The notes: generated by a model from the sequence alone, not told the origin. DNA of 63,940 bases, filler included, from Deltaproteobacteria bacterium (GCA_030698575.1; 10 parts of 10 records of this genome joined end to end with filler, not necessarily neighbours in it); one strand, 5' to 3'. Counted from the first letter of the whole stretch, positions 1 through 18,195 are shown. Translations and numbers: made by a program.

Positions 1-1429
1 GATCGACGCCGATCTGGAAGCGCACCTGGAGGAACAGATCGTCCCGGTGACTATCCATCAGGTCGTCGAGGAAGAAGGGCCTGTCGAACTCGGTGTGCTG
101 GTACTGGAGCCGCACGAGCATCATCTCGCTCTGGTGGAACGTCAGCCAGGTGGCCGCCGCCCAGGCCTGATCTCCCGCAAACGTTCCGTCGATGGGCTGC
201 ACGTAGTCGAATCGCGTGCCGGCCGACCACTTGGGATGGAACCGGTAGTCCACGAGCGAGTAGAGCCCCCAGCCGTCTTGCCCCGAGCCCCAGCGCGATC
301 TTTCGAGGTCCACGAGCAGATCGGCGATTTCCGCGTCGTCCAGCTCTCCCAGGAGCGACGCTACTTCCTCGGGCGATTCAACTCCAAGGACGTCCATGAG
401 AGAGATGTTGGTGTTGCTGCGCCGGCTCGCATACATGAACTCGCTCTGCCACAGGAGCTTCTTCGAACCCGGCATGAAGCGCGTGAGCGTCAGATCAACT
501 CCCGCGAGGTGCGCGTAGCGGTCGGAGTCTTCCTGGCTGGGGCCCGCCATAAGCGAGCCGCCGAGCTCGAGGCCGGTGCTGTCGTCGAGGTCGAAATAGG
601 ATTTCAGGTGGGTGTTGACGACGGGCCTGTTCTTCCCGGCGCAGAAGATCCGGCACTCGTCCTCGGGGTCACCGCCGTTCACGAACTCGATCGTGCCTTC
701 CAGGAAACCATCCCAGGGGTTCGGTATGAGCCGCTGGAGCCGGACGCCGGTATGCGAGAATCCCTCGGGACCCAGGAAGTCCTGGATCACGAGCGGCTCG
801 GTGACCATGGGAAGGGCGTTCAGATCGACAAGGTTCAGCTTTCCGAACTTTGACCGGAACTTGCCCACCTGTCCCTTCAGGGCGTAGGGGATGTCGAATC
901 GCGTCAGGAAGGCTTCCTCGATCTCGATTCCCTCGTCCTCGTTCAGCACGACGGCGAAGTCGGCGCGGCTGTAAGGATCGACGTACCCGCCGAAGACCAG
1001 CTCCAGCTCCCTGAAGCTGAACTGATCGCTCCCCGCGAGGCCGCTGTTCTCCGTCGTGGCGTTGCCGACCACGTCGCCCACCACGCCGATTTCCGGATTG
1101 AGCGAGGCCAGGCCTGAGGCGGGCGGCGGCACGGGAGGCGGCGTCGTGGACGGCGCCTGCGAGGCGGGGCCGGGAGGGCCGCCCGGACCGGGATAGGGAG
1201 CCGATACGAGAGGCTGCATGCGGGGCGTTTGCTGGAGTGCCCCGATGAGCTTCGACTGTTCCTCGACTGTCACCGCGAGTGTGCGGACAGTTTCGCGAAG
1301 CTCCGCCATCTCTTCCTGAACGCTTTTCTCCGCCGCGCCGCCCGCGGCGGCCGTTTCCGCCGCCGAGGCGGGCGCCAGCGGGTAAAGGGCGCTCAGGCTC
1401 CAAAGAACTGCCAGTGATGTCATGCGCAT
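1..1429 (-). CDS. Outer-membrane beta-barrel protein of the 'zinc-regulated TonB-dependent receptor'/metal-uptake porin type; 3' end runs off the window and it is missing from the ORF track
   Basis: Manual translation from ATG 1429 (SD GGAGAG) is open to base 2: signal peptide MRMTSLAVLWSLSALYPLAPASA, coiled coil, Pro-rich linker, then LNPEIGVVGD..FSFRELELVFGGYVDPY..EIEEAF..GKFRSKFGKLN and terminal strand DLFLQVRFQIGVD. Confidence 0.75.
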   Translation of the reverse strand, partial: MRMTSLAVLWSLSALYPLAPASAAETAAAGGAAEKSVQEEMAELRETVRTLAVTVEEQSKLIGALQQTPRMQPLVSAPYPGPGGPPGPASQAPSTTPPPVPPPASGLASLNPEIGVVGDVVGNATTENSGLAGSDQFSFRELELVFGGYVDPYSRADFAVVLNEDEGIEIEEAFLTRFDIPYALKGQVGKFRSKFGKLNLVDLNALPMVTEPLVIQDFLGPEGFSHTGVRLQRLIPNPWDGFLEGTIEFVNGGDPEDECRIFCAGKNRPVVNTHLKSYFDLDDSTGLELGGSLMAGPSQEDSDRYAHLAGVDLTLTRFMPGSKKLLWQSEFMYASRRSNTNISLMDVLGVESPEEVASLLGELDDAEIADLLVDLERSRWGSGQDGWGLYSLVDYRFHPKWSAGTRFDYVQPIDGTFAGDQAWAAATWLTFHQSEMMLVRLQYQHTEFDRPFFLDDLMDSHRDDLFLQVRFQIGVD

Positions 1430-1434
1430 GACGT

Positions 1435-1578
1435 TCTCTCTCCGGCGCGGCGCCAGATAGCCTGACGCGCGTTGCCGCAGGGGCCGCCGCCCGGCGCGCC
1501 AGCGCCGCCGGACCGGACCCGGTTCGGGGCAGTGATCCCTGACGGGAGACTCGAGGGGTGCTTCTAGAGGGAGAGAGA
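1435..1578 (-). promoter_or_regulatory. Putative SD/anti-SD translational switch
   Basis: mRNA UCUCUCUCC (1578-1570, immediately after the RGPP codons at 1590-1579) is perfectly complementary to GGAGAGAGA (1443-1435), the SD region of the ATG at 1429. Confidence 0.6.
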
Positions 1579-1911
1579 CGGAGGACCACGGGTGGTTCGT
1601 TGCGTGGGGAAGAGGCTCGGAACATCCAGGCGGACCGTGGTCCAGGGGAGGGCCGCAGCGTCGATGGAAGCGACAATCCGCGGGGCGTGTCCCAGCACGC
1701 CGTTGACGGCGTGCGTCCAGGCGCATCCGCGGCAGTCGAACTGCGCCGCGCCCGCCTCGCCGCCGTGCTGGTGGAGGGCGCTCGCGTCGACGGTCAGGAA
1801 CGCCAGGAGCGCGGCCAGCCCGAGGGCAATCGCCGCCAGGCCGCGCCGCCGTGCGGGACGGGGGCCGACTTTCACGGGCCTTCCTGTGGTGTGAAGCGAA
1901 TGCCGGGGCAC
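1564..1911 (-). CDS. DUF2946/CruR-like leader protein (TM or signal segment, HxH, CxxC, C-terminal RGPP)
   Basis: Hydrophobic segment, then ALHQH..DCRGC..H..H and C-terminus TTRGPPSLSL; lies directly upstream of the outer-membrane protein gene. Confidence 0.7.
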   Translation of the reverse strand: MPRHSLHTTGRPVKVGPRPARRRGLAAIALGLAALLAFLTVDASALHQHGGEAGAAQFDCRGCAWTHAVNGVLGHAPRIVASIDAAALPWTTVRLDVPSLFPTQRTTRGPPSLSL

Positions 1912-2084
1912 TTGCTGGCACTCCTTTTTTCGCGCGCCAGAGCGTAGCGGCGATGGCCTGGAGGTGTCAATAGGCCGGTTGCAGCCGCCATGCGCTTATC
2001 GTCGCCGCCCGCGCCGGACCTGAGCGGGCCCCTTCTCGGCGAAAGCCAGGCCGAGCGCTCGCTCGGCCGGATTCAGCGGTTCGG

Positions 2085-2630
2085 TCAGGTGTGTTCCTCT
2101 TCGTCTCCTGGATTCTCGCGCTGCTTGCGCCCCATCTCCGCAGGCAGCGAGACCTCGCCGGTCGCCTCGAAGGGAACCGCCTTGCTGCCGAGCCAGGAGC
2201 CCACCTCGAGCGAGGAGCGGAAGTCATAGCTGAGCGCCATGCGGTTCATCCCCCGCTGGATCACTTCCACGAAATTGCCGAACCCCACCTCGACCGGGAT
2301 TGTGATCACCTGCTCGCTCCGCGCGCCTATTTCCCGGGGACCGCCGGAGGGACCCGCGGGGATTTCAACGCCGTTCAGCGAAAGCTGGTAGCGCCACTCG
2401 CGTATCGTAATGCGGAACGGGTTCGGATTGTGAATGCGGACCCTGAGCGAGAGGGTGAGCCCCTTGAGCGATACGTCGGAGACCTCGGCGCCGTCGAAGT
2501 GCAGCGTGGGGCGGTCGAAGAACGGGGCCCCGAGTCGGCCGAGCGGGCCCAGGCGGTCGCAGCCCGAAAGGGCCAGCAGGAGGAGGGCCGCGAGCGGAAT
2601 CAAGACGCGCCGATCAGCGAAGCTTCTCAT
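2085..2630 (-). CDS. LEA type 2 / WHy-domain lipoprotein
   Basis: Lipobox LALSGC; motif LRVRIHNPNPF.I.I....YQLSLNG. Confidence 0.8.
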   Translation of the reverse strand: MRSFADRRVLIPLAALLLLALSGCDRLGPLGRLGAPFFDRPTLHFDGAEVSDVSLKGLTLSLRVRIHNPNPFRITIREWRYQLSLNGVEIPAGPSGGPREIGARSEQVITIPVEVGFGNFVEVIQRGMNRMALSYDFRSSLEVGSWLGSKAVPFEATGEVSLPAEMGRKQRENPGDEEEHT

Positions 2631-2660
2631 GCCAGGATGATCCCCTCATGCGGGGCAAAT

Positions 2661-3482
2661 TCAATCGGCGGGCCGGCCACTGCGCGCACGTGTCCGCCGG
2701 ATGATCTCCAGCATCGCGCCCTGGATCTTGCCGTTCGAGGCGACGATCAGGCGGCCGTCGATCTCGTTCGGGCGCCCCTCGAAGTCGGTGACCACGCCTC
2801 CGGCCTCGCGCACAATGAGTCCGCCGGCGGCCACGTCCCAGGGAGAGAGCTGCATCTCCCAGAAACCGTCGAAGCGCCCCATCGCCGTGTAGCAGAGGTT
2901 CAGTTCGGCGCTGCCGTCCCGGCGTACCGCCTGCGCCTCCATCATGAAGGCTTCGAAGTAGTCGAGGTTGTTGTCGGGATTCTCGCGGATGTCGTAGGCG
3001 AACCCGGTGGCGAGGAGCGAGTGGAGGACGTCCGTCCGGGCGCTCACGCGGATGGGACGGCCGTTCAACGTGGCGCCGCCGCCCAGCACAGCCACGAATT
3101 CCTCGTCGAGCACCGGGTCGAGAACCACGCCGAGCAGCACCCGCCCGGATTGCTCGAGCGCGATGGCGACGCAGAAGCGCGGGTAGCCGTGGGCGTAATT
3201 CGTCGTTCCGTCGAGCGGGTCTACAATCCAGCGGTACTCAGAATCCGATTCCCTGGAATAGCCTTCCTCGGCGAGGATTCGGTGATCGGGAAAAGCGGCA
3301 TGCAGGTGATCGACCACGGCGCGCTCGCAACGGTGATCGACCTCGGTGACGAGATTGATGTCCCCCTTCCGGCTCACTTCGATGGACGCGCCGTAGGAGT
3401 CGAGCTGGATCCGGCCGGCGAGGCGCGCGGCGGCTCGGGCCTCGCTGACAAAGCGCGCGAACTGCCGCTGATCGGCGCCCAC
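2661..3482 (-). CDS. suhB: Inositol monophosphatase family protein
   Basis: LVTEVD, WIVDPLDGTTNYAHG, RRDGSAELNLC, WDVAAG motifs. Confidence 0.93.
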   Translation of the reverse strand: MGADQRQFARFVSEARAAARLAGRIQLDSYGASIEVSRKGDINLVTEVDHRCERAVVDHLHAAFPDHRILAEEGYSRESDSEYRWIVDPLDGTTNYAHGYPRFCVAIALEQSGRVLLGVVLDPVLDEEFVAVLGGGATLNGRPIRVSARTDVLHSLLATGFAYDIRENPDNNLDYFEAFMMEAQAVRRDGSAELNLCYTAMGRFDGFWEMQLSPWDVAAGGLIVREAGGVVTDFEGRPNEIDGRLIVASNGKIQGAMLEIIRRTRARSGRPAD

Positions 3483-4874
3483 CTAGCCGACCTCGTCGAG
3501 GGGACGAAAGCGGAAGCGCACGCCGAGTTCTTCCTCGGCGATGCGGCGGCAGGCCTCGACGTCGACACCGGGCAGCCCCACGGCAGTCGCCTGCACGTCG
3601 GGGATATGCGCCCGCGCCAGGCGGATGAACTCCTTCACCTTCGGGTACGCCTCGGTCTTGTAGCGCGAGGGGCAGTAACGCGCGTAGGTCTCGGCGTCCT
3701 GCGCGTTGAGCGAGACCGAAACTGAATCGACGAGCCCCTCCAGCTCGGGGGTGATGTCCCTTCCGTGGACGAGGCTGCCGAGCCCGTCCGTGTTGAGCCG
3801 TACCTTGTGGCCACGCGCCTTGAGCCCGAGGGCGATCGCCTTCAGCTCTTCGAGCTTGAGCGTCGGCTCGCCGTAGCCGCAGAAGACCACCTCATCCGGC
3901 CGCGCTTCGGCCGTGGCCTGGTCGACCTCGGCGAGTACCACGTCGGGGTCGGGCCCCTTGGCGCCGATCTTCAGGAAGTACCCCTTCACCATGAAGTCCT
4001 CGAACTTGGGGCAGAAGGTGCAGGCGAGCGTGCAGCGGTTCGTCAGATTGACGTAGAGGCTGTTGCGAATGCGGTAGGTGATGCGCGGCTCGAGCGTTGG
4101 ATCGAGGCCGAAGAGCCTGCGCGCGTTGAGCGAGGTGATGCGCGCCACGTCCTCGAAGCTGAGCTTCTTCAACTCGGCGATCTTCTGCGCCACCAGCGAC
4201 ACGAAGGCCGGCTCGTTGCGCTTGCCCCGGTGGGGCGCGGGCGTGAGATAAGGGCAGTCGGTTTCGATGACGAGCTTCTCGATCGGCACCTTCTCCACAA
4301 TTTCACGGAGGTCGGCGGCGTTCCGGAAGGTCACGACACCGGAAATCGAAAGGTAGAGCCCGAGATCCAGGCAGCTCCGCGCCATGTCGTAGTCGCCGGA
4401 GAAGCAGTGCATGACGCCGCCGGGATACTCGTTTCGCATCTCGCGCAGGATCGCGACCGTGTCATCCTTGGCCTCCCGGCTGTGCACCACCACGGGCTTT
4501 CCGAGTTCACCGCCAAGCGCGAGGAACTCCCGAAACCTCGCCTGCTGCTCCTCCCTGGGCGAGTGCATGTAGTGGTAGTCGAGGCCGATTTCACCCACCC
4601 CAACGACTTTCGGGTCCTCCGACAAGTCCCGGTACTCCGGATTGGCCTCGAGCGACCACTCCTTGGCCTCGTGCGGATGCACGCCGATGGTGGCGAAGAC
4701 GCGCTCGTTGTCGCGGGCGAGCGCAAGCGCCCGGCGCGCGCCTTCGGGACCCTCGCCGGAGCCCACCACGACCATCCAGTCGAGGCCGGCCTCCCAGGCG
4801 CGCGAGAGCACCTCGCTGCGATCCTGGTCGAAGCGTGCGACGTCCACGTGGCTATGTGTATCGACGAGCGGCAT
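3483..4874 (-). CDS. tatD: TatD hydrolase fused to a TatD-associated radical SAM domain
   Basis: N-terminal DTHSH, GVHPH, GEIGLD, HCFSG, ETDCPYL; C-terminal YVNLTNRCTLACTFC (CxxxCxxC) and EVVFCGYGEPT; start placed at MPLVDTH (4874). Confidence 0.9.
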   Translation of the reverse strand: MPLVDTHSHVDVARFDQDRSEVLSRAWEAGLDWMVVVGSGEGPEGARRALALARDNERVFATIGVHPHEAKEWSLEANPEYRDLSEDPKVVGVGEIGLDYHYMHSPREEQQARFREFLALGGELGKPVVVHSREAKDDTVAILREMRNEYPGGVMHCFSGDYDMARSCLDLGLYLSISGVVTFRNAADLREIVEKVPIEKLVIETDCPYLTPAPHRGKRNEPAFVSLVAQKIAELKKLSFEDVARITSLNARRLFGLDPTLEPRITYRIRNSLYVNLTNRCTLACTFCPKFEDFMVKGYFLKIGAKGPDPDVVLAEVDQATAEARPDEVVFCGYGEPTLKLEELKAIALGLKARGHKVRLNTDGLGSLVHGRDITPELEGLVDSVSVSLNAQDAETYARYCPSRYKTEAYPKVKEFIRLARAHIPDVQATAVGLPGVDVEACRRIAEEELGVRFRFRPLDEVG

Positions 4875-4899
4875 GCGGCAGATGATAGCGGACGGCCCC

Positions 4900-6486
4900 T
4901 TACTTGGCATCCACGGGAGGAAGGATCTCGAGGCGCGGGAACAGCGGGTCGCCCTTGGTCACGCGCCCCTGCTCGGGAAACTTGAAGAAGTCGAGATCGG
5001 AATCGATCCGCTGCGCGTCCACCGAGCCGGGAAGCCCGAGCTGCGACCAGATGCTGGCGGCGGCGCCGGGCATGACGGGTTGAATGAGGATGGCCAGGAT
5101 CCGCAGCGTCTCTGCGCAGACATAGAGGATGTCGGCCACCTCGTCCGCGCGCGCGGGATCCTTCGCGATCTGGAAAGGCTTGCGTGCCGCGATGAAGCTG
5201 TCGAGGGCCGCGACGATGCGCCAGGCCTGCTCCAATGCGCGGCTCGGCAGCATCTCGTCCATCCCCCGCCTGTAGCCCTCGAGCGCGTCCCCCATATGGC
5301 TGTTGTTGATGAACGACTCCGACGCCTCGCGCACGGTCGGGGTCTTGCGTACGATCCCCACCTGGTACCGCACGATCATCGCCGTCGTGCGCGCGAGAAG
5401 ATTGCCGATCCCGTTCGCGAGATCGGCGTTGCAGCGGTCCTGCACGCGCTCCCAGGTGAAGTCGCCGTCGCGGTCGAAGGGGACCTCCGCCATGAGGAAG
5501 TAGCGCAGCGCATCGACGCCGACCTTCTCCGCGACCTCGACGGGGTCGAGCACCGTCCCGAGAGTCTTCGACATCTTGGCGCCCTGGAGGTTCACGAAGC
5601 CGTGGGCGTGGACCTTGAGGGGCGGCTCGAGGCCCGCGCTCCAGAGCAGTGCCGGCCAGATGATGCAGTGAAAGCGGGTGATATCCTTGCCGATCACATG
5701 CACGTCGGCGGGCCAGGTTTTCCTGAATCGCTCCTCATCCGTCCCGTAACCGGCTCCGGTGATGTAGTTGATGAGCGCGTCCACCCAGACATAGGCGACG
5801 GACCAATCGTCAAAGGGGAGGGGGATCCCCCATTTTACGCCCGCCCTCGAGATCGAAACGTCCTGCAGGCCGCCCCGGATCACATTCAGGATCTCGTTGC
5901 GGCGCATCTCCGGCTGAATGAAGCCGGGGTTCTTCTTCGTGATGTACTCGATCAGTTGGTCCTGGAACTTCGACAGCTTGAAGAACCAGTTCTGCTCGCG
6001 GATCCACTCGGGCTTGGTGCCGTGCGTCGGGCAGTTACCGCCTGCCAGGTCTTTTTCCTGGTAGAAGGCTTCGCAGGAAACGCAGTACCACCCTTCGTAG
6101 TGACCCTTGTAGATGTCGCCCTTGCCGTTGTCGTATATCGCCTGGAGGAACTTCCTGACGGCGTTCTTGTGAACCTCGTCGGTGGTTCGGATGAAGCGGT
6201 CGTAGGAGATTTCCAGCCGGCGCCATGTCGCCTCGAAGCGCTCCGCCATCTCGTCGCAGTAGGCCTGGGGGTCTTTCCCCAGTTCCCGCGCACGCTTCTC
6301 GACGTTCAGTGAGTGCTCGTCATTTCCCATGAGGAAATAGACGTCGTCGCCGCGCAGCCGGCGGTAGCGCGCGATCACGTCGGCGCCGATCTTCTCGTAG
6401 GCCGTGCCGAGGTGGGGCGTGGAGTTCGCGTAGTCGATCGCGGTGGTGATGAAGAACTTTTTTCCGCTGCCTGTGGGCATGGTCAT
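4900..6486 (-). CDS. metG: Methionyl-tRNA synthetase (short form without C-terminal tRNA-binding domain)
   Basis: ITTAIDYAN..HLGTAYE (HIGH-like), YCVSCE Zn knuckle, YVWVDAL, GKDITRFH, KMSKT. Confidence 0.96.
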   Translation of the reverse strand: MTMPTGSGKKFFITTAIDYANSTPHLGTAYEKIGADVIARYRRLRGDDVYFLMGNDEHSLNVEKRARELGKDPQAYCDEMAERFEATWRRLEISYDRFIRTTDEVHKNAVRKFLQAIYDNGKGDIYKGHYEGWYCVSCEAFYQEKDLAGGNCPTHGTKPEWIREQNWFFKLSKFQDQLIEYITKKNPGFIQPEMRRNEILNVIRGGLQDVSISRAGVKWGIPLPFDDWSVAYVWVDALINYITGAGYGTDEERFRKTWPADVHVIGKDITRFHCIIWPALLWSAGLEPPLKVHAHGFVNLQGAKMSKTLGTVLDPVEVAEKVGVDALRYFLMAEVPFDRDGDFTWERVQDRCNADLANGIGNLLARTTAMIVRYQVGIVRKTPTVREASESFINNSHMGDALEGYRRGMDEMLPSRALEQAWRIVAALDSFIAARKPFQIAKDPARADEVADILYVCAETLRILAILIQPVMPGAAASIWSQLGLPGSVDAQRIDSDLDFFKFPEQGRVTKGDPLFPRLEILPPVDAK

Positions 6487-7532
6487 GCCTCCCGGCGCGC
6501 GACAGCGCCGCCGGCGTTACGCCCCGGCCGGCCCTCGGGGCCCGCGAGATCGGCGAAGAGCCCCTGCAGGGCGAGGGCCGGCGTCACGTTCCGCCGGATG
6601 TCCTGCTGGGCTCGCAGGATGCGCGTGAAGGCGCGGGCTGCGCGGTCTGCGGCGCCGGGGACTCTCGCTTCGTCTTGCATCGCCCTGACTCGATCGCGGT
6701 GCGCGAGATCGGACTCGAGCCCGCCCGAGGCCAGCACCATCACGTCATGCGCCTTGAGCAGGAGGAGATCAAGAACCGCGAGCGCCCGGGCTCGTCCTTC
6801 CTCGGTGCCCCGCACTCCCTCGGCCCAGGCAAGCGCCGGCCCAAGAACGCCCGATTGGGCCGCGCCCTCAACCTCGAAGAGCGCGTCGCGATCAGGGAGC
6901 GCTCCGGCCTTACCGAGCGCCAGCGCACGCCCGAGGCTGCCGCGGGCGATTCCGGCGAGAAGATCCACCTGCTTCGGATCGATGTCCGCTCGCGCGGCCA
7001 GCGCTCTCCGGAGCGGCGCGTCCGGGATGGGGCCGAAGCCGACGCTCTGGCATCGCGAGAGAATTGTGCCGACGAGCGCGCTCGGGCGCGCGGTGACGAG
7101 AATGAACACGGTGCCCGCACCCGGCTCCTCGAGCGTTTTCAGGAACGCGTGCTGGGCGTCGAACGAAAGCGCGTCGGCCGGATCGACGATGGCGACCCGC
7201 TGGCGGCCGCCGTGGGAAGCAAGCTGGAGCTCCGCCTCGATGGCGTGAAAACGATCGATCGGAATGCGACTCTTTCCCTCGGGGATCTCGAGCACGTGCA
7301 GATCGGGATGGGTGCCAGCGCCGAAGCGAACACAGGATGCGCAACTACCACAGGCCTCCTCGCCGGCGGGATCATCGCAGAGAAGGGCCGCCGCGAAGGC
7401 GTCGGCGGCGCGTCGCTTGCCCACACCCCCGGGCCCCTGGAAGAGATAGGCGTGCGCCACCCGCCCCGCGCGTGTGGCGCGCCGAAGGATCTCGAGGGGC
7501 CGCTCTTGCCCAAGGATGTCGGAGAACCGCAT
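6483..7532 (-). CDS. holB: DNA polymerase III delta' subunit
   Basis: HAYLFQGPGGVGK, CGSCASC Zn module, HPDL, LKTLEEP, TILSRCQ; 4-nt overlap with metG. Confidence 0.92.
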   Translation of the reverse strand: MRFSDILGQERPLEILRRATRAGRVAHAYLFQGPGGVGKRRAADAFAAALLCDDPAGEEACGSCASCVRFGAGTHPDLHVLEIPEGKSRIPIDRFHAIEAELQLASHGGRQRVAIVDPADALSFDAQHAFLKTLEEPGAGTVFILVTARPSALVGTILSRCQSVGFGPIPDAPLRRALAARADIDPKQVDLLAGIARGSLGRALALGKAGALPDRDALFEVEGAAQSGVLGPALAWAEGVRGTEEGRARALAVLDLLLLKAHDVMVLASGGLESDLAHRDRVRAMQDEARVPGAADRAARAFTRILRAQQDIRRNVTPALALQGLFADLAGPEGRPGRNAGGAVARREA

Positions 7533-7698
7533 GGGTGTCCTCGAACTGCGCCCCGGGGGGCGCCGCGCGGGGCGCGCTGTTTCGCTGCGAACGCCGGCAG
7601 GAGGGTGGCGGTCAGAAGGTCAAACTATCATAATGGATCCAGTTTTCCCGCCCCACCGCGGCGCGCAGCGTGCCCGGTAACCGAGCCGAAGCACCCAC

Positions 7699-8382
7699 GT
7701 GATTCCCATCAAGGACGAGAACCCGAGCCGTTCCGCGCCGATCGTCACGGTGATCCTGATCGTCGTGAACGTCGCCGTCTACCTCTGGCAGGCGTCAGTG
7801 GGCCCGGAAGAGGAGTACGGAATCCTCCGCTGGGGGCTCACGCCGATCGAGCTCCGCGGGCTTTTCACCTATGCGCACGGTTCCTTCAGCGCCCAGCCCA
7901 TCGTGACGCTCTTCAGCTCGATGTTCCTCCACGGCCACCTGCTTCACCTGGCGGGGAACATGCTCTTCCTCTGGATCTTCGGGAACAACGTGGAGGACAC
8001 GCTCGGCCATTTTCGCTTCGTGCTTTTCTATCTCATAACCGGGGTGGCCGGGGCGCTGACGCAGGTTTTCACGACGGCGGATCCGACGGTTTCGATGATC
8101 GGCGCGAGCGGGGCCATCTCGGGGGTGCTGGGCGCATACCTCGTGCTTCACCCCTTTGCGCGCATCGTCACCCTCGTGCCGCTCTTCTTCTACTTCACGG
8201 TCGTGCGCATTCCCGCTTTTTTCTTCCTCATCTTCTGGTTCCTTATCCAGATCCTGGGCGGCGTCGCGGCCCAGGGCGCCAAGGGCGGGGGTGTCGCCTT
8301 TCTCGCGCACGTCGGGGGCTTCGTCGCGGGGATTATCCTGGTGCGCCCGCTCGCCCGCCAGAAGATTCCGCGGGCGCGGTGA
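7699..8382 (+). CDS. Rhomboid intramembrane serine protease
   Basis: MIPIKDENP start, SMFLHG..HLAGNM, GASGAISG, AHVGGF. Confidence 0.93.
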   Translation: MIPIKDENPSRSAPIVTVILIVVNVAVYLWQASVGPEEEYGILRWGLTPIELRGLFTYAHGSFSAQPIVTLFSSMFLHGHLLHLAGNMLFLWIFGNNVEDTLGHFRFVLFYLITGVAGALTQVFTTADPTVSMIGASGAISGVLGAYLVLHPFARIVTLVPLFFYFTVVRIPAFFFLIFWFLIQILGGVAAQGAKGGGVAFLAHVGGFVAGIILVRPLARQKIPRAR

Positions 8383-8421
8383 ATCCTGCGCTGGCGCTGA
8401 TAGCCTCCGGGCCGGGCCCGA

Positions 8422-9195
8422 TCACGGCTTCGCGGTCTCCTTCGTTCTGTCGATCACCTTGAAATCCTTCGGGATCGTGAACGGCTGCTCGGGCAGCTTC
8501 TCGTTGACCTTGAAAACGGTCGGCTCGATGGTGTCCTTTACCTCGGTGCCGCGCCAGTTCGACACGAGGATGTTCTTAACGCCGATGTCGCCGTACGTCC
8601 AGATCTCGGAGGTGCCATCAGCGATCGGGATGACGTAGTGCTTTGTCTTGTGCCCCATCAGATCTTCCTCGGTGATGGTCGCCCCGATCTCGGTCAGCTC
8701 CTCGTCGGTGATGGTCACGAGCCGCTTTTGCAGTTCGGTCTTTTTCTCTTTCGAAAGATCGTCGCGCCGGATGAGGAAGCGCATCGTAGGCAGCCAGAAC
8801 TCGAAGCGCTGGGCGATGATCAGCGGCGCCATTTCCACCCTCGCCACGATGGCGCTCTTCAACGACGGTGCCATGGACGTCTGGACGCCTTCCACGTTGA
8901 AGTACGAGCCCTGATCATCGGACGTCCGGCCGGGGTCTCCGGGAATCTTCCGGACCATGTCGCGCACTCCCGCCATCCGCTTGTAAACGAGCGCGCCGTT
9001 CTCGAAAGTCTTTGTCTCGAGGAAGATCTGGCGCGTGCCCGTGATGTTGCCGTCGTAGGTCCACGTCACCTCGAGGGTCTTGAAATTGTAGCCCTCCGGC
9101 GCGCCGGAATAGGTCTCCCCGTTGCAGGCGACCAGGGTGACGGCGAGAAGGAATGGGATGAGCCGGTGAAGGCTGAAACGGGTGAGCCCGGGCAC
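8422..9195 (-). CDS. Hypothetical lipoprotein
   Basis: GTG start with AAGGAG SD; lipobox LVAC; no family recognised. Confidence 0.7.
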   Translation of the reverse strand: MPGLTRFSLHRLIPFLLAVTLVACNGETYSGAPEGYNFKTLEVTWTYDGNITGTRQIFLETKTFENGALVYKRMAGVRDMVRKIPGDPGRTSDDQGSYFNVEGVQTSMAPSLKSAIVARVEMAPLIIAQRFEFWLPTMRFLIRRDDLSKEKKTELQKRLVTITDEELTEIGATITEEDLMGHKTKHYVIPIADGTSEIWTYGDIGVKNILVSNWRGTEVKDTIEPTVFKVNEKLPEQPFTIPKDFKVIDRTKETAKP

Positions 9196-9310
9196 GTTTT
9201 TCTCCTTGCGATAGTTGTTCTCCGGTCGCTCCTGGCGCCGGAAGCTCGTGACGGTATCACCCGCCCTCGCGCACTGTCAACGAAACCGCCCGAACACGCG
9301 CCGCGTTCGG

Positions 9311-9345
9311 AAAGAGAAAAGCCCCCTCGCGAGAGGAGGCTTTTC
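9311..9345 (-). terminator. Rho-independent terminator of nrdJ
   Basis: Hairpin GAAAAGCC..CTC-GCGA-GAG..GGCTTTTC with a U-rich tail on the minus strand, just after the stop. Confidence 0.8.
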
Positions 9346-9367
9346 AAGGCTGGCGGACCCTGGAGCT

Positions 9368-11971
9368 TCAGCTGCAGTTCGAGAATCCGCAGTCGAAGCA
9401 GGTGGGCTCCTTGCAGCCGCTCACGAACTCGACGTTCGTGGAGTAGCACTGCGGGCAAGTCGCCGAGATGCTCGCGTCGCGAGCCGGCGCGGCGGCGGGC
9501 TTGGCGCTCGCCGAGGCGCCGTTCCCGTTGGCCTTCATGTGGCCGTGCTTGATCAGGTGATCGCGCAGGATCTGGCTGAGCGCGTAGGGGATCGACTCGA
9601 CCCGCTTGGGGCCGAACCCGATGGGGCGATCGCCCTTGACCGAGTTCAGGTGCTTCAGGATGCGCTCGGCTTTTCCGCCGGTCTCGAGATACTTCGAGAG
9701 AAGGATGCCGATGACCGCGGTGAGCCCGGCGATCTCGGTTCCGAGCGGCGGGATGTTGGCGAACACCCGGAAGGGCCCGCGCTCGTCGTAGATGATGTTG
9801 ACGTGCAGCGGCCCGTAGCCCGTCTCCTTCTCGTAGTATTCACTCGTGACGCCGTGTTCAGCCGAGGGACGCCGGGACGGTAGAGGCGCGGGCGCTTCAT
9901 CCGCCGCCTTCTTGCCGATGTTGAGCACTTGCTGGGTCTTCGATCCGTCCCGGTAGACGGTGAGCCCCTTCACGCCGAGGTCGTAGGCGAGGAGATAGCC
10001 CCGTGCGATCTCCTCCTTGGTGGTTTCCTGCGCGCAGTTGATGGTCTTCGAGACCGCGTTGTCCGTATGGTTCTGGAAGGCGGCCTGGACCGCGATGTGG
10101 TGCTCGAAGGATACGTCGTGGGCCGTGGAAAAAATGTCCTGCACGTGCTTGGGGATCTCGGGGATGCCCCTGACCGCCTTGTGGTTCTCGTCGATCTTCT
10201 TCCACAGCTCCGATTCTTCCAGGCCGAAGTAGTCGTTCGCCTCGGCCACCGCCTTGAAATGCGGGTTGACCTCCCAAAACGTGTCTTCCTCGGCGGGTGT
10301 CTGGCCCTTCTTCAGGGCATCTATGCCGCGGGCGTTGTAGCGCGTGTAGGCGACGGCGAAGAACGGCTCGATGCCCGAGCCCTGAAGGCCGGCGGCGATG
10401 GCGATGGTGCCCGTGGGTGCGATGGTGGTCCGTGCGCAGTTGCGCGGAAGAACGTGCTGGCCGCGGAAGTGCTTGCCCTCGGGATCGTAGATGGAGTTCT
10501 TCCAGTTCGGGAAGACCCCGCGGCTGGCGGCGAGTTCGACGCTTGCATCCAGGGCCGACTCGTTGATGAAGCCCATAACCTCCTCGGCTTTCTCGATGGC
10601 CCGCTCTGAATCGTAGGGAATGTCGAGCGCCACAAGCGTCTCGGCCCAGCCCATTACGCCCAGGCCGATCCTCCGGTTACCCTTCGCCATGAGCTCGATC
10701 TCGGGGACCGGGTAGTCGTTCAGTTCGATGACGTTGTCGAGAAAGTGAACGCAGCTGAAGACCGTCTCGCGCAGACGCGTCCAGTCGATGCTCGATCCGC
10801 CGTTGTAGCCGGTGACGAACTTGCTGAGGTTGATCGAGCCGAGATTGCATGGCTCGTTCGGCAGCAGCGGCTGCTCGCCGCAGGGGTTCGTCGCCTCGAT
10901 CTCGCCCAGTTGGGGCGTGGGATTCGAACCGGAGGCGTTGATGCGGTCGAGGACCACGTAGCCAGGGTCACCGCATTCCCAGGCGCACTCGGCCATGAGG
11001 TCGAACAGCTCCCGCGACGGCAGGCGCTTGACGACTTCGCCGGTGCGCGGGTTCCTGAGCTCGATATCCTCCCCCTTCTTGACGGAGTCCATGAAGGCCG
11101 CGTCGATCCCGACAGAGATGTTGAAGTTCTCGAGGACGGTGTTGTTGCGCGCGCGCTTCATCGTGATGAAGTCGATGATGTCGGGATGCCAGTAGGGGAG
11201 GATGGCCATGTTGGCGCCGCGCCGCGTGCCGCCCTGCTTCACCTGCTCGGTGGCGGCGTCGAAGATTTTCATGAAGCTCAGCGGACCCGAGGCGATGCCC
11301 TTGGTGCTCAGGACGGCGTCCTCGGCGGGGCGGATGCGGCCAAAGGAGAATCCGGTGCCGCCCCCGCTCTTGTGGATGAGCGCCTGGTTCTTCACGGCGC
11401 CGAAGATTCCCTCGATGGAGTCGGGAACGGGAAGCACGTAGCAGGCTGAAAGCTGCTGCAGCTCCCGGCCGGCGTTCATGAGCGTCGGGGAGTTCGGCAG
11501 GAACTCGAAGCGCGCCATCAGCCGGTAGAACTTCAACTCCGTCTCGCGGACGACGTCGGCCGCGGCGGGATCCTCGGATGCCACCCTGTAAAGGTTGGTC
11601 ATCAGCTTCTTGAAGTTCGACACACGCTCCCGGTAACCGTGCATCTCGTGGTGGATGAGGAGCATCTCGACGGTCTCGCCGCCGCCGGCCTCTTTCCTGT
11701 CGATGTGATGGCTCACCCCTTCGAGGATCGCCGGCCGGAACCGCGCATCGTGAAGCAGCTCGCCAAGCGCGATGTTGCGCGCCACGTTCAGAAGCCAGGC
11801 CTCGGGTGATTTCGCATCTTTCAGGTACTTGTCGTTGATGACCTTGCGCTGGTTTTCCGTGAGCTGGAGGCTTTCAACCGACCCGGAAGTGTCGACATGC
11901 GTGGTTCCCATGGGCTCCATGATGACCTTTCCCCCCTGAACGTTGGCGGTTCCGTTTCCTGCCCGGGTCAC
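9368..11971 (-). CDS. nrdJ: Class II (adenosylcobalamin-dependent) ribonucleotide reductase with C-terminal TSCPD-like and Zn-ribbon region
   Basis: FLPNSPTLMNAG, QLSACYV, QGGTRRGANM, TNPCGEQPL, CNLGSINL, TTIAPTGT, DNAVSKTIN, KGLTVYRDGS; C-terminal CPQC..CFDCGFSNC; exact start uncertain. Confidence 0.95.
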   Translation of the reverse strand: MTRAGNGTANVQGGKVIMEPMGTTHVDTSGSVESLQLTENQRKVINDKYLKDAKSPEAWLLNVARNIALGELLHDARFRPAILEGVSHHIDRKEAGGGETVEMLLIHHEMHGYRERVSNFKKLMTNLYRVASEDPAAADVVRETELKFYRLMARFEFLPNSPTLMNAGRELQQLSACYVLPVPDSIEGIFGAVKNQALIHKSGGGTGFSFGRIRPAEDAVLSTKGIASGPLSFMKIFDAATEQVKQGGTRRGANMAILPYWHPDIIDFITMKRARNNTVLENFNISVGIDAAFMDSVKKGEDIELRNPRTGEVVKRLPSRELFDLMAECAWECGDPGYVVLDRINASGSNPTPQLGEIEATNPCGEQPLLPNEPCNLGSINLSKFVTGYNGGSSIDWTRLRETVFSCVHFLDNVIELNDYPVPEIELMAKGNRRIGLGVMGWAETLVALDIPYDSERAIEKAEEVMGFINESALDASVELAASRGVFPNWKNSIYDPEGKHFRGQHVLPRNCARTTIAPTGTIAIAAGLQGSGIEPFFAVAYTRYNARGIDALKKGQTPAEEDTFWEVNPHFKAVAEANDYFGLEESELWKKIDENHKAVRGIPEIPKHVQDIFSTAHDVSFEHHIAVQAAFQNHTDNAVSKTINCAQETTKEEIARGYLLAYDLGVKGLTVYRDGSKTQQVLNIGKKAADEAPAPLPSRRPSAEHGVTSEYYEKETGYGPLHVNIIYDERGPFRVFANIPPLGTEIAGLTAVIGILLSKYLETGGKAERILKHLNSVKGDRPIGFGPKRVESIPYALSQILRDHLIKHGHMKANGNGASASAKPAAAPARDASISATCPQCYSTNVEFVSGCKEPTCFDCGFSNCS

Positions 11972-12179
11972 GCTCCCCCCGCGGGATACGCGGCCTCTCC
12001 GCAGCCTAACTGCGCCCTGTGATCAGCCGCCCACGACCGTTCCCAGGGGGCGCCGGCAGGACTCGCCGGCACGGCTGAGCCCCGCAATAAGGGGAAAAGC
12101 CACCCCCGCCACGGCAGCTCGAGGCGCGCGTGGCTTGATCCGTCAGCATCGATAGGGAACGGGTCGGAAGGGGCTGTGA

Positions 12180-12227
12180 CCCTTATATCTTGTAGGGGCG
12201 CCAGCCAGTACTCACGACATCTTGTAG
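12180..12227. promoter_or_regulatory. Tandem NrdR boxes
   Basis: CCCTTATATCTTGTAG (12180-12195) and TCACGACATCTTGTAG (12212-12227), 32 bp apart, resemble the acaCwAtATaTwGtg consensus and lie upstream of nrdJ. Confidence 0.85.
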
Positions 12228-12248
12228 GCAGGCGGGAATGCCTGTCAA
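12219..12248 (-). promoter_or_regulatory. Putative sigma70 promoter of nrdJ overlapping the second NrdR box
   Basis: Perfect TTGACA (12248-12243) with -10-like TACAAG or CAAGAT at 16 or 18 nt spacing. Confidence 0.55.
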
Positions 12249-12304
12249 GAAGATTCGATCCGGGGTTGGACTAAAAATGTCACGGCGCCGGCCGGGGCCC
12301 GAAT

Positions 12305-13171
12305 CTAGGTGATGATCGGCAGCTCGAAGGGGGTGGCGCGGCGGATCTCTTCGAGGGGCGGGACCAGGCGCTCGGCGATGTCCCGGTAGAGCTTCGAGAC
12401 GGGGTGGTCGGGTTGGGCCGCCACGATGGGCGTTCCCGCGTCGCCGGCGGCGCGCACCGCCGGGTCGATGGGGATCTTGCCGAGGAAGGGAACGCCCAGC
12501 TCCTCCGCGCAGCGCTCGCCGCCGCCGGTGTCGAAGATGTCGGTTTCCTTGCCGCAGTGCGGGCAGCTGAAGGTGCTCATGTTCTCGATGATTCCCAGCA
12601 CGCGAACGTTCACCCGCTCGAACATCTTGAGCCCCTTGCGCGCGTCGATGAGTGCGACATCCTGCGGCGTGGTAACGATCACGGCGCCTGAAAGCGGCGC
12701 CAGCTGTGTGAGCGTCAACTGGGCATCGCCCGTTCCGGGCGGCAGATCGATGAGCAGATAGTCCAGCTCACCCCACAGCACGTCGCTCAGGAATTGCTGG
12801 ACGATGCCGTGGACCATGGGTCCCCGCCAGATGATCGGCGAGTCGTCATTGGTGAGAAAACCCATGGACACAAGCTTCAGGCCGTGGCGCTCGAGCGGCA
12901 CGAGCTTGCGCTCGGGCGTGACGGCGGGCGTCTTGTTGATGCCGAGCATGAGCGGGATGCTGGGGCCGTAGATGTCGGCGTCGAGGAGCCCGACGCGGCT
13001 CCCCCGGGCGGAGAGCGTCAGGGCGAGGTTGGTGGCCACCGTCGATTTTCCCACGCCGCCCTTGCCGCTCGCGATGGCCACGATGCTCTTGACCTCTTCG
13101 AGGATGCGGGCGGGGCGCGGAGCGGGCTTGGACGCGGGCCCGGACACAGGGTCAGAAACAGGGTCAGACAC
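12305..13171 (-). CDS. mrp: Mrp/ApbC (NBP35-family) Fe-S cluster carrier ATPase
   Basis: ASGKGGVGKST, LLDADIYGPS, IDLPPGTGD, VTTPQ, ENMSTFSCPHC; GTG 13171 has a GGAGG SD. Confidence 0.93.
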   Translation of the reverse strand: MSDPVSDPVSGPASKPAPRPARILEEVKSIVAIASGKGGVGKSTVATNLALTLSARGSRVGLLDADIYGPSIPLMLGINKTPAVTPERKLVPLERHGLKLVSMGFLTNDDSPIIWRGPMVHGIVQQFLSDVLWGELDYLLIDLPPGTGDAQLTLTQLAPLSGAVIVTTPQDVALIDARKGLKMFERVNVRVLGIIENMSTFSCPHCGKETDIFDTGGGERCAEELGVPFLGKIPIDPAVRAAGDAGTPIVAAQPDHPVSKLYRDIAERLVPPLEEIRRATPFELPIIT

Positions 13172-13369
13172 GACGGGATCCTCCGGGAGCCAGGGCGCCG
13201 GGGCGATTGCGGGCCGCGGCGGGGGCGGATGGTGCAAGCGGGGGAGAGGGTAGGTGTGCCCCGGGGGGGTGTCAACCGCGGCGCCCGGACGTTGCGCCCG
13301 GGCGCCGTTGCGCCTGTGGCCCCGGGGCCGGCTTGAAAGGGCGGCGGCCCTGCGCCATTATTCCTTCCC

Positions 13370-14038
13370 ATGAAGATCAAGGTGAAATTCTTCGCATCGC
13401 TCCGGGAGCGGGTGGGCGTTTCGGAGGCCGATCTCGAATGCCCGGACGGGACCTCCGTGGCGGGCCTGCGAGCCCGGCTCGCGGAGCGATACCGGCAGCC
13501 CGAGGCTTTCGCATCGACGCTCCTGGTTTCGGTGAACTGGGATCCGGCCGGAGAGGATCTCCTGCTGGCTGAGGGCGACGAGGTCGCGTTCCTCCCACCC
13601 ATGTCGGGGGGCGTGAATGGGGAGGGCGCCTTCTGGCTCTCCGAAACGCCGATCGACGCCGCGATGGTGGAAGAGAAGGTGCGGTGGGCCGGCTCCGGCG
13701 GAGTAGTCACCTTCCTCGGCGCCGTCCGCGCCGAATCGCGAGGCAAGAAGATAAGGCGCCTCGAGTACGAGGCGTACGGCGGCATGGCCGAGAAGAAGAT
13801 GCGGGAGATTGGCGAAGAGATGGCGCGTCGCTGGCCCGGCGTCCGCGTGGCCATCGCGCACCGCATCGGGGCGCTCGACGTCGGGGAGTTGGCTGTGGCG
13901 ATCGCGGTCGCGGCGCCGCACCGGGCCGAGGCCTTCGAAGCCTGTCGTTACGCCATCGACCGCCTGAAGGAAGTGGTTCCGATCTGGAAGAAAGAGATCG
14001 CCGAAGATGGCGCCTACTGGGTCGAGCCCCATGCCTGA
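13370..14038 (+). CDS. moaDE: MoaD-MoaE fusion (molybdopterin synthase, MoaX-like)
   Basis: Ubiquitin-like N-terminus (IKVKFFASLRE..GDEVAFLPPMSGG) followed in frame by MoaE (GGVVTFLGAVR, LEYEAY, HRIG, PIWKKE). Confidence 0.92.
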   Translation: MKIKVKFFASLRERVGVSEADLECPDGTSVAGLRARLAERYRQPEAFASTLLVSVNWDPAGEDLLLAEGDEVAFLPPMSGGVNGEGAFWLSETPIDAAMVEEKVRWAGSGGVVTFLGAVRAESRGKKIRRLEYEAYGGMAEKKMREIGEEMARRWPGVRVAIAHRIGALDVGELAVAIAVAAPHRAEAFEACRYAIDRLKEVVPIWKKEIAEDGAYWVEPHA

Positions 14039-14564
14039 TGAGCCGCGCAAGGCCCACGACCATCACCGCGAGACGTCTCCCCGCGACGCGCGCTGCTTCG
14101 TCCTGACGGTGAGCGACACGCGGGATCCCGATACCGATCGCTCGGGCCGGCTCATCGGGGAACTTGTGGAGGGGGCAGGGCTGCGCCTCTCGGGCGCGGA
14201 AATCGTTCCCGATGAACCGGCGCGCATTCGCGCCTCGATTGAAGCGAGGCTGGCCGATCCCGCGACCGACGTCATTCTCGTCACCGGTGGAACCGGAGTC
14301 GCCCCGCGGGACCGGACGGTGGAGGTCGTGCGGGAGCTTCTGGAACGCGAGCTTCCGGGCTTCGGGGAGATCTTCAGAATGCTGAGCTTTCGAGAGATAG
14401 GCGCCGCCGCCATGCTGTCACGGGCGCTGGCAGGCGTGGCGCGCGGGAAGGCCGTTTTTGCGCTCCCGGGCTCCGCCGACGCCGTGAAGCTCGCCATGAA
14501 CCAGATTATTCTGCCCGAAATCGGACACCTGCTTCGGGAACTCCGCAAGCAGGGGTCCGGCTAG
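14031..14564 (+). CDS. moaB: MogA/MoaB molybdenum cofactor biosynthesis protein
   Basis: LTVSDTR..DRSG, TGGTGVAPRD.T, LPGFGEIFR, AMLSRA.AG, LPGS. Confidence 0.9.
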   Translation: MPDEPRKAHDHHRETSPRDARCFVLTVSDTRDPDTDRSGRLIGELVEGAGLRLSGAEIVPDEPARIRASIEARLADPATDVILVTGGTGVAPRDRTVEVVRELLERELPGFGEIFRMLSFREIGAAAMLSRALAGVARGKAVFALPGSADAVKLAMNQIILPEIGHLLRELRKQGSG

Positions 14565-14629
14565 CTCGCCCGTACGCACTCGGGCGTGTGGCGGCGGATC
14601 TCAAGCGGTCTGTCGCAGGTGGGTGTTAC

Positions 14630-15037
14630 ATGAATGAATCCGGCAAGACTCTGGTCATTCTGCTCGTGGACGACGATCCTTCGATCGTCAAGGTAGTGGG
14701 AGCGCGCCTCCGATCGGAGGGGTACAAGGTCGTCACGGCGGCGGACGGCGAGGCGGCGGTCGAACGCGCCCGGTCGCTGTTGCCGGATCTGATCATCCTC
14801 GATGTCAATCTTCCCAAGCGCATCGGTTACAGCGTTTCGCGCATGCTCAAGCTCGACGGGCGGACCAGAAGGATTCCAATCCTCATGCTCACCGCGCGCG
14901 ATCAGGAGGCCGACTGGCGTCTGGGGGCGCTGACCGGGGCCGACGGCTACATGACGAAGCCCTTCGAGACCCAGGATCTGTTGCGGACCATCAGAAACCT
15001 TCTGGCCGCGGCCGGAAGGACGCCCTCCGACCCCTGA
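14630..15037 (+). CDS. Single-domain response regulator
   Basis: ILLVDDD, PDLIILDVNLP, LMLTA, GADGYMTKPF. Confidence 0.88.
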   Translation: MNESGKTLVILLVDDDPSIVKVVGARLRSEGYKVVTAADGEAAVERARSLLPDLIILDVNLPKRIGYSVSRMLKLDGRTRRIPILMLTARDQEADWRLGALTGADGYMTKPFETQDLLRTIRNLLAAAGRTPSDP

Positions 15038-15074
15038 GCCGATCCCTTCTGAGAGGTCGGATCCCTCGGGGGGC

Positions 15075-16727: not shown

Positions 16728-16967
16728 GGACTGGGATCACCCTCCGTCATGTGGTTGGCCCGGGGGCTTCGCGCGGCGGTTGCGCGCGCTCGGTCACCGG
16801 CGCTCGGAGACGAGGGCGTCCACGTGACACGTAACCGTGGAACCCGCGGCCATGGAACTGGCGGGAGAATAGGGTGGCGCGGAAGGGTTGTAAAGATTCG
16901 GCGGCCGGGTTCCGCCGGAAGAAGCGCTCAACGCTCCCTTTCCGGGGCGCGCCAGGCCAATAAGCCG

Positions 16968-16996
16968 TTGACTTTCCAACCCTCCTTCTCTAATTT
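16968..16996 (+). promoter_or_regulatory. Putative sigma70 promoter of tolQRAB
   Basis: TTGACT-17 nt-TAATTT about 40 nt upstream of tolQ. Confidence 0.5.
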
Positions 16997-17038
16997 GCAG
17001 GGTCTCCCCCAGAGCCACGGGAATTGGGATTTCATCAC

Positions 17039-17791
17039 ATGCCAGGCACTTTCCTTGCGGGCGCCGCTGCCGCGGGTCCGACCTTCCAGGGCGGCATACT
17101 CGACCTCATCTGGAACTCCGGCCCCGTCGTCAAGCTGGTTCTCATCATACTTTTCGGCTTCTCCTTCATCTCATGGGGAATCATTTTCTATAAGGCGCGC
17201 GTCATCAAGCGCGCGTTGGAGGAATCGACCGAGTTCCTCGAGATCTTCTGGGAGCGCCGGACGCTGGATCTCATCTACGAGGAGGCCAAGGGCCTCAGCG
17301 GGAGCCCGCTTTCGAACATCTTCCGCGCGGGCTTCATCGAACTGGTAAAGCTCAAGCGAGGCCGCAACGCGGGTGCAATTCCGCGTGTCGATCCGCGGGG
17401 GGCCGTCACTGTCGAGGCCGACCTCGACGAGGTCCTGAAGAAGATCCGCTGGACGAGCGCGGCGGAGATTAACCACCTCGAGCGGTACATCTCATTCCTG
17501 GCCACGACCGGTTCCACTGCTCCTTTCATCGGACTGTTCGGAACGGTGTGGGGGATCATGGATGCGTTCCGGCACATCGGCGTCAAGGGAGCTGCCAGCA
17601 TCGCAGTTGTCGCGCCGGGCATTTCCGAGGCGCTTGTCGCCACCGCCATCGGCCTGTTCGCCGCCATTCCCGCCGTGGTCGCGTACAACTACTTCGTCAG
17701 CAAAATCAGAGTCATCGTGAAGGAAATCGAGGGCTTCACGGACGATTACATGGCTGACCTGCGCAAGGCCTTCGAGAAGGAACTGGGATGA
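17039..17791 (+). CDS. tolQ: TolQ
   Basis: FLATTGSTAPFIGLFGTVWGIM, VAPGISEALVATAIGLFAAIPAV. Confidence 0.93.
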   Translation: MPGTFLAGAAAAGPTFQGGILDLIWNSGPVVKLVLIILFGFSFISWGIIFYKARVIKRALEESTEFLEIFWERRTLDLIYEEAKGLSGSPLSNIFRAGFIELVKLKRGRNAGAIPRVDPRGAVTVEADLDEVLKKIRWTSAAEINHLERYISFLATTGSTAPFIGLFGTVWGIMDAFRHIGVKGAASIAVVAPGISEALVATAIGLFAAIPAVVAYNYFVSKIRVIVKEIEGFTDDYMADLRKAFEKELG

Positions 17792-18192: not shown

Positions 18193-18195
18193 GCC

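Follow-up and report, generated by a model that had tools for sequence, protein, structure and literature searches.

A candidate nascent-chain metal sensor ahead of a porin and zinc-type uptake operon in a deltaproteobacterial genome

The window analyzed here is a 63,940-nucleotide (nt) stretch of DNA from a Deltaproteobacteria bacterium (GCA_030698575.1), in which a small open reading frame (ORF) lies ahead of the gene for an outer-membrane porin. We propose that this ORF encodes a CruR/CutF-like sensor, which would detect metal while still a nascent chain and act on translation initiation to control a zinc-type uptake operon. The probability of this whole chain is, in our estimate, about 60%; that the ORF is a cis-acting arrest leader of some kind is highly probable. 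The anatomy of the leader peptide and its spacing are conserved ahead of homologous porins, an anti-Shine-Dalgarno (anti-SD) element under the predicted footprint of a stalled ribosome covaries with the porin gene's Shine-Dalgarno (SD) sequence, and the operon that follows is of the zinc type.

Results

Leader peptide and anti-SD element at the window locus

The initial annotation of the locus, made from sequence, described a 115-residue leader with a hydrophobic segment, HQH, CRGC and a C-terminal RGPP-SLSL-stop, and all of these were located in one ORF (Table 1). Gene callers start the leader at a later GTG (position 1875), which gives a protein of 103 residues (P0310). The export signal was called from hydropathy rather than with a signal-peptide predictor. 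The predicted structure of the leader (predicted template modeling score, 0.35) contains helices only and is uninformative on ligand geometry. The window leader had no Pfam or NCBIfam match, with no Pfam family at an E value of ≤1, and matched the leader profile described below with an E value of 2e-12, the profile having been built with the window leader included.

The gene downstream of the leader, which the ORF track had missed, is real and runs off the contig, about 5 residues short of its end as judged from its paralog. The nine nucleotides after the RGPP codons had been described as perfectly complementary to the SD region of this gene. The anti-SD is indeed the exact reverse complement of the porin SD region, and the helix between the two dominates the predicted fold of the region, with an ensemble probability of 0.96. 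A complement of at least 9 nt to the porin SD zone occurred in 60 of 19432 (0.3%) 18-nt zones on the minus strand of the contig. When a ribosome footprint was modeled over the predicted arrest site, the cost of opening the porin SD dropped from 12.0 to 5.3 kcal/mol.

The competing GC helix (1512-1502 with 1453-1441) that had also been suggested to reach the SD edge is complementary on paper, and it was ruled out: its probability is about 0 with or without the footprint, and the partners of 1453-1446 are local ones, located between 1465 and 1474. In the second copy of the locus in the same genome, a 37-nt insertion splits the corresponding segment from the SD, and the anti-SD/SD pair is kept with 10 bp. 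A known RNA family or riboswitch was rejected, as Rfam gave no family match in 12 loci, including the window locus. No intrinsic terminator was found on the coding strand of the intergenic region.

Conservation of the leader ahead of porin homologs

We compared two sets of loci. Set 1 comprised 175 porin matches in 176 loci, including the window locus, its second copy and some duplicates, and its named records are mostly Omnitrophota, Planctomycetota and Acidobacteriota. Set 2 came from a wide sample of 401 genomes, 89 of which have the porin; 68 loci, mostly from the better-scoring matches, were examined.

The arrest motif is kept in the homologs, as the initial annotation had expected. An ORF ending in R[AG]PP shortly before its stop codon was found within 900 nt upstream of the porin in 118 of the 149 set 1 loci that had at least 450 nt of upstream sequence (one of the 118, L093, being doubtful). 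In the controls, the count was 3/149 for A[AG]PP, 3/149 for the opposite strand and 3/99 for the region further upstream. Among the 31 set 1 loci without such an ORF, 25 match the leader profile with leaders ending in RSPP, HAPP, KAPP or RDPP, two (L010 and L159) are leader-like by eye, and the remaining four are without a leader. RSPP and RDPP have been reported as partly arrest-permissive. In set 2, a leader was present at 55 of the 67 loci with room for one (45 with motif and profile match, 5 with profile match only, and 5 with motif only); the other 12 had neither, and 3 of these 12 have ORFs ending in APKxSPP.

The aligned leaders have His at each of the two HxH positions in 104 of 107 cases and Cys at the two CxxC positions in 105 and 95 of 107. 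CxxC was in range in 93/110 leaders, and in 91 of these 93 it is separated from the Arg of the arrest motif by 43 to 46 residues; an N-terminal hydrophobic segment is present in 101/110. The mean column identity of the alignment is 15%, and only HxH, CxxC and RxPP are kept, at fixed spacing, with RxPP conserved through the way the aligned leaders were chosen. The profile matched 6098 representatives at an E value of ≤0.001, gene context not being considered. The relation to DUF2946 (PF11162) that had been proposed for the leader holds in part. The window leader has no match to this family, and 52 of the 107 aligned leaders match it weakly at an E value of ≤0.05 (best, 7.6e-6). Two PF11162 scores that were seen, 17 and 21.8 bits, lie below the gathering cut-off of 23.7, and one homolog has a precomputed PF11162 assignment. 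In its proposed working the window leader resembles those of DUF2946, though it fails the PF11162 model.

Several features of the family vary. The leaders of L269, L278, L303, L304, L307, L309, L316 and L319 end in [AV]PK[QLTH]SPP or IPGQSPP instead of RxPP; standing at the same position ahead of the porin, these endings are a candidate for an unrecognized arrest motif. Among the 90 set 1 leaders that start with ATG, 43 have a TAnnnT hexamer 5 to 9 nt before the ATG, often with TTGAC further upstream (for example, L028, L054, L056, L065, L114 and L162), and only 10 have an SD; the window leader has one. The mRNAs of many set 1 leaders may themselves be leaderless. Between CxxC and the arrest motif, 55/107 leaders have a second hydrophobic segment that is strongly so, the window leader not being among them; in those leaders, HxH and CxxC would sit in a loop between two membrane helices. 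Elsewhere in the source genome, contig C306 carries at 6049-6484 (plus strand) a small exported-looking ORF that ends in RAPP-x4-stop, has no CxxC and matches the leader profile weakly, with an E value of 0.002.

Covariation of the anti-SD with the porin SD

For the pairing analysis, porin starts were picked by pairing with the 16S rRNA tail and by hydropathy, with the leader ignored, and 115 unique leader/porin pairs were used after one pair with a short spacer had been dropped. Kin among these loci are not independent. The zone from +7 to +24 relative to the predicted P-site codon formed a duplex of -11.4 kcal/mol with the SD zone of the same locus, compared with -8.6 kcal/mol for swapped partners (z = -13, n = 115), and three neighboring control zones gave z values of -0.75, -1.3 and 0.03. 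After clustering at 70% identity, the median z was -7.8 (n = 58). The own SD beat the SDs of the three nearest relatives in 79 of the 115 loci (P = 7e-6). The wide sample replicated the pairing, with z = -7.5 (n = 50) and a GC-matched value of -6.2. The covariation that the initial annotation had named as a check was therefore found in both sets.

The modeled footprint frees the SD in most of these loci, about 70%. It lowered the SD opening cost by more than 1 kcal/mol in 83/115 loci (raising it in 4) and in 32/50 loci of the wide sample (raising it in 1), and a control footprint placed 8 codons upstream had no net effect. Between about half and two thirds of the loci clearly have a predicted SD-masking stem, one arm of which lies beneath the modeled ribosome.

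Porin and downstream operon

The product of the downstream gene, described before as an outer-membrane protein of the metal-uptake type, is an outer-membrane protein but not a TonB-type receptor. A TonB-dependent receptor is a 22-strand barrel with a plug domain. The porin model, built from a 50-sequence alignment (predicted local distance difference test, 80), has 16 beta strands, an N-terminal helix (residues 34-66) and no plug, and the fold search matched it best to porins, among them MOMP, OprP and chitoporin, so that a TonB-dependent receptor was ruled out. The conserved positions are largely Asp and Glu, with a few His, and most of the distant homologs have two His at the C-terminal end, followed by the terminal aromatic residue. 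The conserved acidic residues and the C-terminal His pair would fit a cation-preferring pore. Cluster names for the family gave only "porin" or "hypothetical," and the Atlas clusters had automatic names only, one of them being 22% Porin_O_P.

Four porin paralogs without a leader (L266, L285, L308 and L311) also have no C-terminal His pair and end in FERPEPF or KFYNLF; they possibly serve another substrate. A conserved 5' region that gave no match in Rfam is common to L308 and L311.

A gene for a ZnuA-family substrate-binding protein (SBP; PF01297) directly follows the porin gene in 130 of the 151 set 1 loci with room and in 61 of the 68 set 2 loci, and an ABC-3 permease gene (PF00950) is usually next. 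His65, His144 and His208 of the SBP are kept in 123 to 124 of 124 sequences. The third ligand site is His, as in ZnuA, whereas the Fe/Mn binders YfeA and MntC have Glu there. For one representative each of the SBP, permease and ATPase, and for the genome's own SBP, the best models were those of the zinc transporter components AztC, AztB and AztA, all below cut-off (AztC scores of 101 and 118 bits versus a 350-bit cut-off). The ATPase family was found in 28 loci and the permease family in 127; most set 1 operons have no adjacent ATPase gene (for example, L020, L023, L030 and L046). Several operons among L022, L103, L104, L107, L108, L117 and L126 have a gene with a diadenylate-cyclase domain 3' of the permease gene.

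In the source genome, the second copy of the locus has a porin 87% identical to that of the window, the same leader, and behind the porin the only ZnuA-family gene found in the genome, the window copy being cut by the contig end. This copy is either a paralog or belongs to a co-binned strain (genome contamination, 4.6%). One RNA run was found; 5% of the words were present in it, and from relatives it has short pieces only, which gives no evidence of expression.

Metal identity and regulators of the Fur family

The initial annotation had left the metal open. The context, namely the SBP, the Azt models and the Zur-type boxes described here, points to zinc as the most likely metal. His2Cys2, as given by HxH and CxxC, is a typical zinc ligand set. 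Three leaderless copies of the porin operon (L327, L051 and L013) have operator-like palindromes at the promoter. In Vibrio campbellii (L327), these are two TGTTATnnnATAACA boxes, the sole exact matches in 327 loci, and one of them is 17/19 identical to a box of the Caulobacter Zur regulon. L051 has ATGCAACnnnGTTGCAT, a perfect predicted Desulfovibrio-type Zur box; its complete genome encodes a single Fur-family protein, which has FurB/Zur among its top PDB matches (we take 3MWM to be a Zur structure). L013 has a Fur-like box and, by eye, an apparent divergent Fur-family gene, and L277 also has a Fur-like box.

No Fur-family gene was found in the source genome, which is 91.6% complete; 13 of 14 control genomes gave a match. 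A general absence of Fur-family regulators in leader-bearing genomes was ruled out, since 46 of 50 have one. A tree together with characteristic motifs placed 49 of 71 Fur-family proteins in a Fur-like clade and 19 elsewhere, chiefly among PerR-like groups. The majority of 49 leader-bearing genomes, which are incomplete metagenome-assembled genomes, appear to have Fur-like or PerR-like rather than Zur-like proteins, on the basis of the tree, these motifs and one PDB check; this non-Zur classification is soft. PMC545781 and PMC4176598 are also among the source papers.

Discussion

Proposed mechanism and points against it

By analogy to CruR and to arrest peptides of Streptomyces, a ribosome translating the leader would arrest at RGPP, its P and A sites occupied by the two Pro codons. 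As computed, the stalled ribosome would cover the anti-SD (nucleotides +7 to +15), so that the porin SD would be free and the operon on. When metal, most likely Zn(II), is sufficient, it would bridge the HxH beside the membrane helix and the CxxC, which, some 45 residues away from the arrest site, would just have left the tunnel. Metal-driven folding would then pull on the chain and release the stall, the ribosome would terminate four codons later, and the anti-SD/SD helix would close and turn the porin gene off, after which the distal genes may be silenced through Rho polarity. Because the genes encode importers, the operon would be on in metal scarcity.

A number of observations weigh against this proposal. 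Stalling, metal binding and regulation of the leader family would follow by analogy with characterized leaders, and CxxC leaders with a spacing of 43 to 46 residues have so far been shown to sense copper, not zinc. The covariation is weaker after clustering at 60% identity (n = 25; median z, -3.1; range, -4.4 to -1.6), and in the wide sample the Pro-Pro zone also gives a z of -2.7. The SD pairing probability exceeds 0.3 in only 59/115 loci, and the own pair is within the best 10% for only 42/115. Three near relatives with long spacers (L097, L098 and L017) have no footprint gain, and L002 has little. The best whole-length PDB matches of the SBP are the Fe/Mn binders YfeA and MntC. L168, L170 and L173 have both a box and a leader. 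In the wide sample, leaderless and leader-bearing loci could not be told apart by three Zur/Fur consensus boxes, so that a systematic swap of the leader for Zur/Fur boxes was not shown with these boxes and the box evidence comes from three hand-picked cases. The 60 nt around the P site of the window leader contain 30 C and 8 G, and the C/G ratio in the same region of homologs is 1.9 to 2.5; since this arrest zone is C-rich and G-poor and the genome encodes rho, Rho may act as well.

Alternative explanations

The same stall and SD switch could respond to another metal (Cu, Mn, Fe(II), Ni or Co) or to several metals, which we consider rather unlikely. The spacing of 44 to 45 residues after CxxC is the layout of the Cu-responsive CruR, binding of Ni or Co has been suggested for His-rich CutF-like proteins (PMC9973294), and NicO-like genes lie near 6 loci; the whole-length PDB matches of the SBP and the Fur-like boxes at L013 and L277 would also suit this view. 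On the other hand, the SBP with three His ligands, the Azt models as best matches, the Zur-type boxes in two leaderless copies and the extra, near-invariant HxH that completes a His2Cys2 set argue for zinc. If the leader instead worked as shown for CruR, the stalled ribosome would mask a C-rich Rho utilization (rut) site and the pyrimidine tail would pair with the SD incidentally. The base composition of the arrest zone and the presence of rho are consistent with this. A rut site, however, predicts no pairing specific to the own SD, yet the tails fit their own SD better than those of relatives, and in one zone only, which makes an explanation by Rho without the SD switch improbable; the two mechanisms could also operate in series.

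The direction of the switch could be that of CutF, with metal inducing or prolonging the stall and the operon on with metal, or the leader could monitor Sec or YidC activity. CutF stalls with Cu present and opens an SD stem, Sec monitoring is known for other RAPP/RGPP leaders, and the second hydrophobic segment seen in about half of the aligned leaders could be pulled by membrane insertion. The regulated genes are importers, however, leaderless versions have repressor-type boxes over the promoter, and HxH and CxxC are the sole conserved residues besides the arrest motif. Either variant is improbable. It is very improbable that the small protein is simply an exported metal chaperone of the operon with a nonregulatory RGPP and pairing. 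Its export signal and candidate metal ligands would suit such a role, and gene callers annotate it as a protein, but its low column identity, with only the three motifs kept at fixed spacing, does not fit a chaperone, RGPP and RAPP rank among the most avoided tetrapeptides, and the RNA covaries. A metal-released stall that opens the porin SD, with zinc as the metal, remains the reading we prefer.

Relation to known systems

CruR (Bp2923, DUF2946/PF11162) was described by Roy et al. in 2022 (PMC9426467), and its arrest was shown by Fujiwara et al. in 2025 (PMC12992588), together with that of 7 Streptomyces proteins with RAPP/RGPP leaders. The likeness to DUF2946 leaders that had been drawn from the CxxC-to-RGPP layout is borne out, with 44 residues in the window leader and 43 to 46 in nearly all homologs versus 45 ± 1 to 2 residues in CruR (PMC9426467). 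Both leaders have an export signal, CxxC, 44 to 45 residues and a C-terminal R[AG]PP 3 to 4 residues from the stop, both are upstream ORFs standing first in an outer-membrane metal-uptake operon, and the direction would be alike (on when stalled, off with metal). CruR senses Cu, acts by Rho termination and stands ahead of a TonB-dependent transporter. In contrast, the present leader precedes a porin and a ZnuA-type ATP-binding cassette system, has the near-invariant HxH and carries the covarying anti-SD in its last codons, and the window leader has no PF11162 match. The word "zinc" does not occur in the available part of the CruR paper (PMC9426467).

The Rhodobacter capsulatus protein CutF (Öztürk et al., 2023, PMC9973294; bioRxiv 10.1101/2025.02.05.636593) is likewise an exported, Cys-containing leader, and ribosome stalling on it melts a stem in which the downstream SD is hidden. 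It has CxxxC and PPP, depends on EF-P and stalls when Cu is present, which induces a detoxifying oxidase, and the stem has been placed in the intergenic region, whereas the present leader has RGPP, an importer target and the anti-SD under the stalled ribosome. With the arrest peptides SecM, MifM and VemP and those of the ApdA/ApdP type (Fujiwara et al., 2024, PMC10987492), the leader shares the RAPP/RGPP-type motif, an SD-sequestering stem disrupted by the stalled ribosome and release by pulling force; those peptides monitor Sec/YidC, control sec or yidC genes and have no metal site. CruR, CutF and SecM already supply every principle of the proposed switch. The initial annotation was not aware of a description of the coupling for this outer-membrane protein family, and this stands only in part, because for CutF it has been published that stalling on a metal-sensing leader opens a stem shielding the SD (PMC9973294).

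The available part of the 4B source list of PMC12992588 contains at least 9 rows in which RAPP leaders precede similarly named receptors. By eye, these leaders have the same layout (signal, His, mostly CxxC, and RAPP), and one is annotated as "DUF2946 domain-containing protein"; the downstream genes, about 1.2 to 1.5 kb, have the size of the present porin gene. From name and length, these receptors would belong to the present porin family. None of 10 porin homologs looked up carries the receptor name.

In the literature searched, with most subscription journals outside its scope, we found no description of a zinc-sensing leader or of the regulation of this porin/ZnuA-type operon; neither the probable zinc link nor the anti-SD/SD covariation was found there, some supplements lying outside the scope. 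The metal-sensing arrest peptides characterized in that literature, CruR and CutF, respond to copper. With the present family, the principle would reach beyond copper to the uptake of zinc and into many phyla that have been little studied. It could explain the control of zinc import in genomes without a recognizable Zur, and would assign a porin family that has no name to a probable class of substrate. Fujiwara et al. (2025, PMC12992588) left open whether and how RAPP/RGPP arrest regulates non-Sec genes; as the covariation identifies the nucleotides to mutate, such regulation becomes testable. More tentatively, a stalled chain with a His2Cys2 zinc site may be a common alternative to Zur, gating the porin/ZnuA operon via a covarying anti-SD in about a fifth of sampled bacterial genomes, with Zur mostly missing in such lineages and Zur boxes present where the leader was lost; at this breadth the idea is doubtful.

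Other features of the window

The features of the locus are collected in Table 1. The sigma70-like promoter candidate lies under the threshold of the consensus promoter scan, which gave 0 sites.

Table 1. Positions of the leader, porin and associated elements in the window
Feature	Position	Strand	Remarks
Contig bearing leader and porin	1-19450		rest of the window consists of further contigs, with paired N runs between
Weak sigma70-like promoter candidate	1941..1970	-	TTGACA 1970-1965, 18 nt, TACGCT 1946-1941; predicted from sequence
Leader SD, AGGAG	1921..1925	-	9 nt 5' of GTG 1911
Leader ORF (upstream ORF), CruR/CutF-like	1911-1564	-	115 amino acids from GTG 1911
Alternative leader SD, GGAAGG	1884-1879	-	ahead of GTG 1875
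N-terminal hydrophobic helix (signal peptide or anchor)	1777..1839	-	residues 25-45; predicted helix 21-45
HxH (HQH), His47 and His49, candidate metal ligands	1765..1773	-	residues 47-49
CxxC (CRGC), Cys60 and Cys63, candidate metal ligands	1723..1734	-	residues 60-63; 44 residues ahead of Arg
RGPP arrest-type motif	1590-1579	-	residues 108-111; followed by SLSL-stop
Predicted P-site and A-site codons	1584-1582 and 1581-1579	-	geometry borrowed from the CruR toeprint (PMC12992588)
Anti-SD, TCTCTCTCC	1578-1570	-	in the last leader codons; +7 to +15 from the P-site codon
Structured intergenic region	1430..1563	-	134 nt; enclosed by the anti-SD/SD helix
Porin SD region, GGAGAGAGA	1443-1435	-	5 nt ahead of ATG 1429
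Outer-membrane porin gene	1..1429	-	476 amino acids; ATG 1429; cut by the contig end

Further along the same window, at 3483-4910 on the minus strand, a TatD-family nuclease and a TatD-associated radical S-adenosylmethionine (SAM) domain are encoded together in one ORF of 475 amino acids, and both pass the NCBIfam cut-offs.

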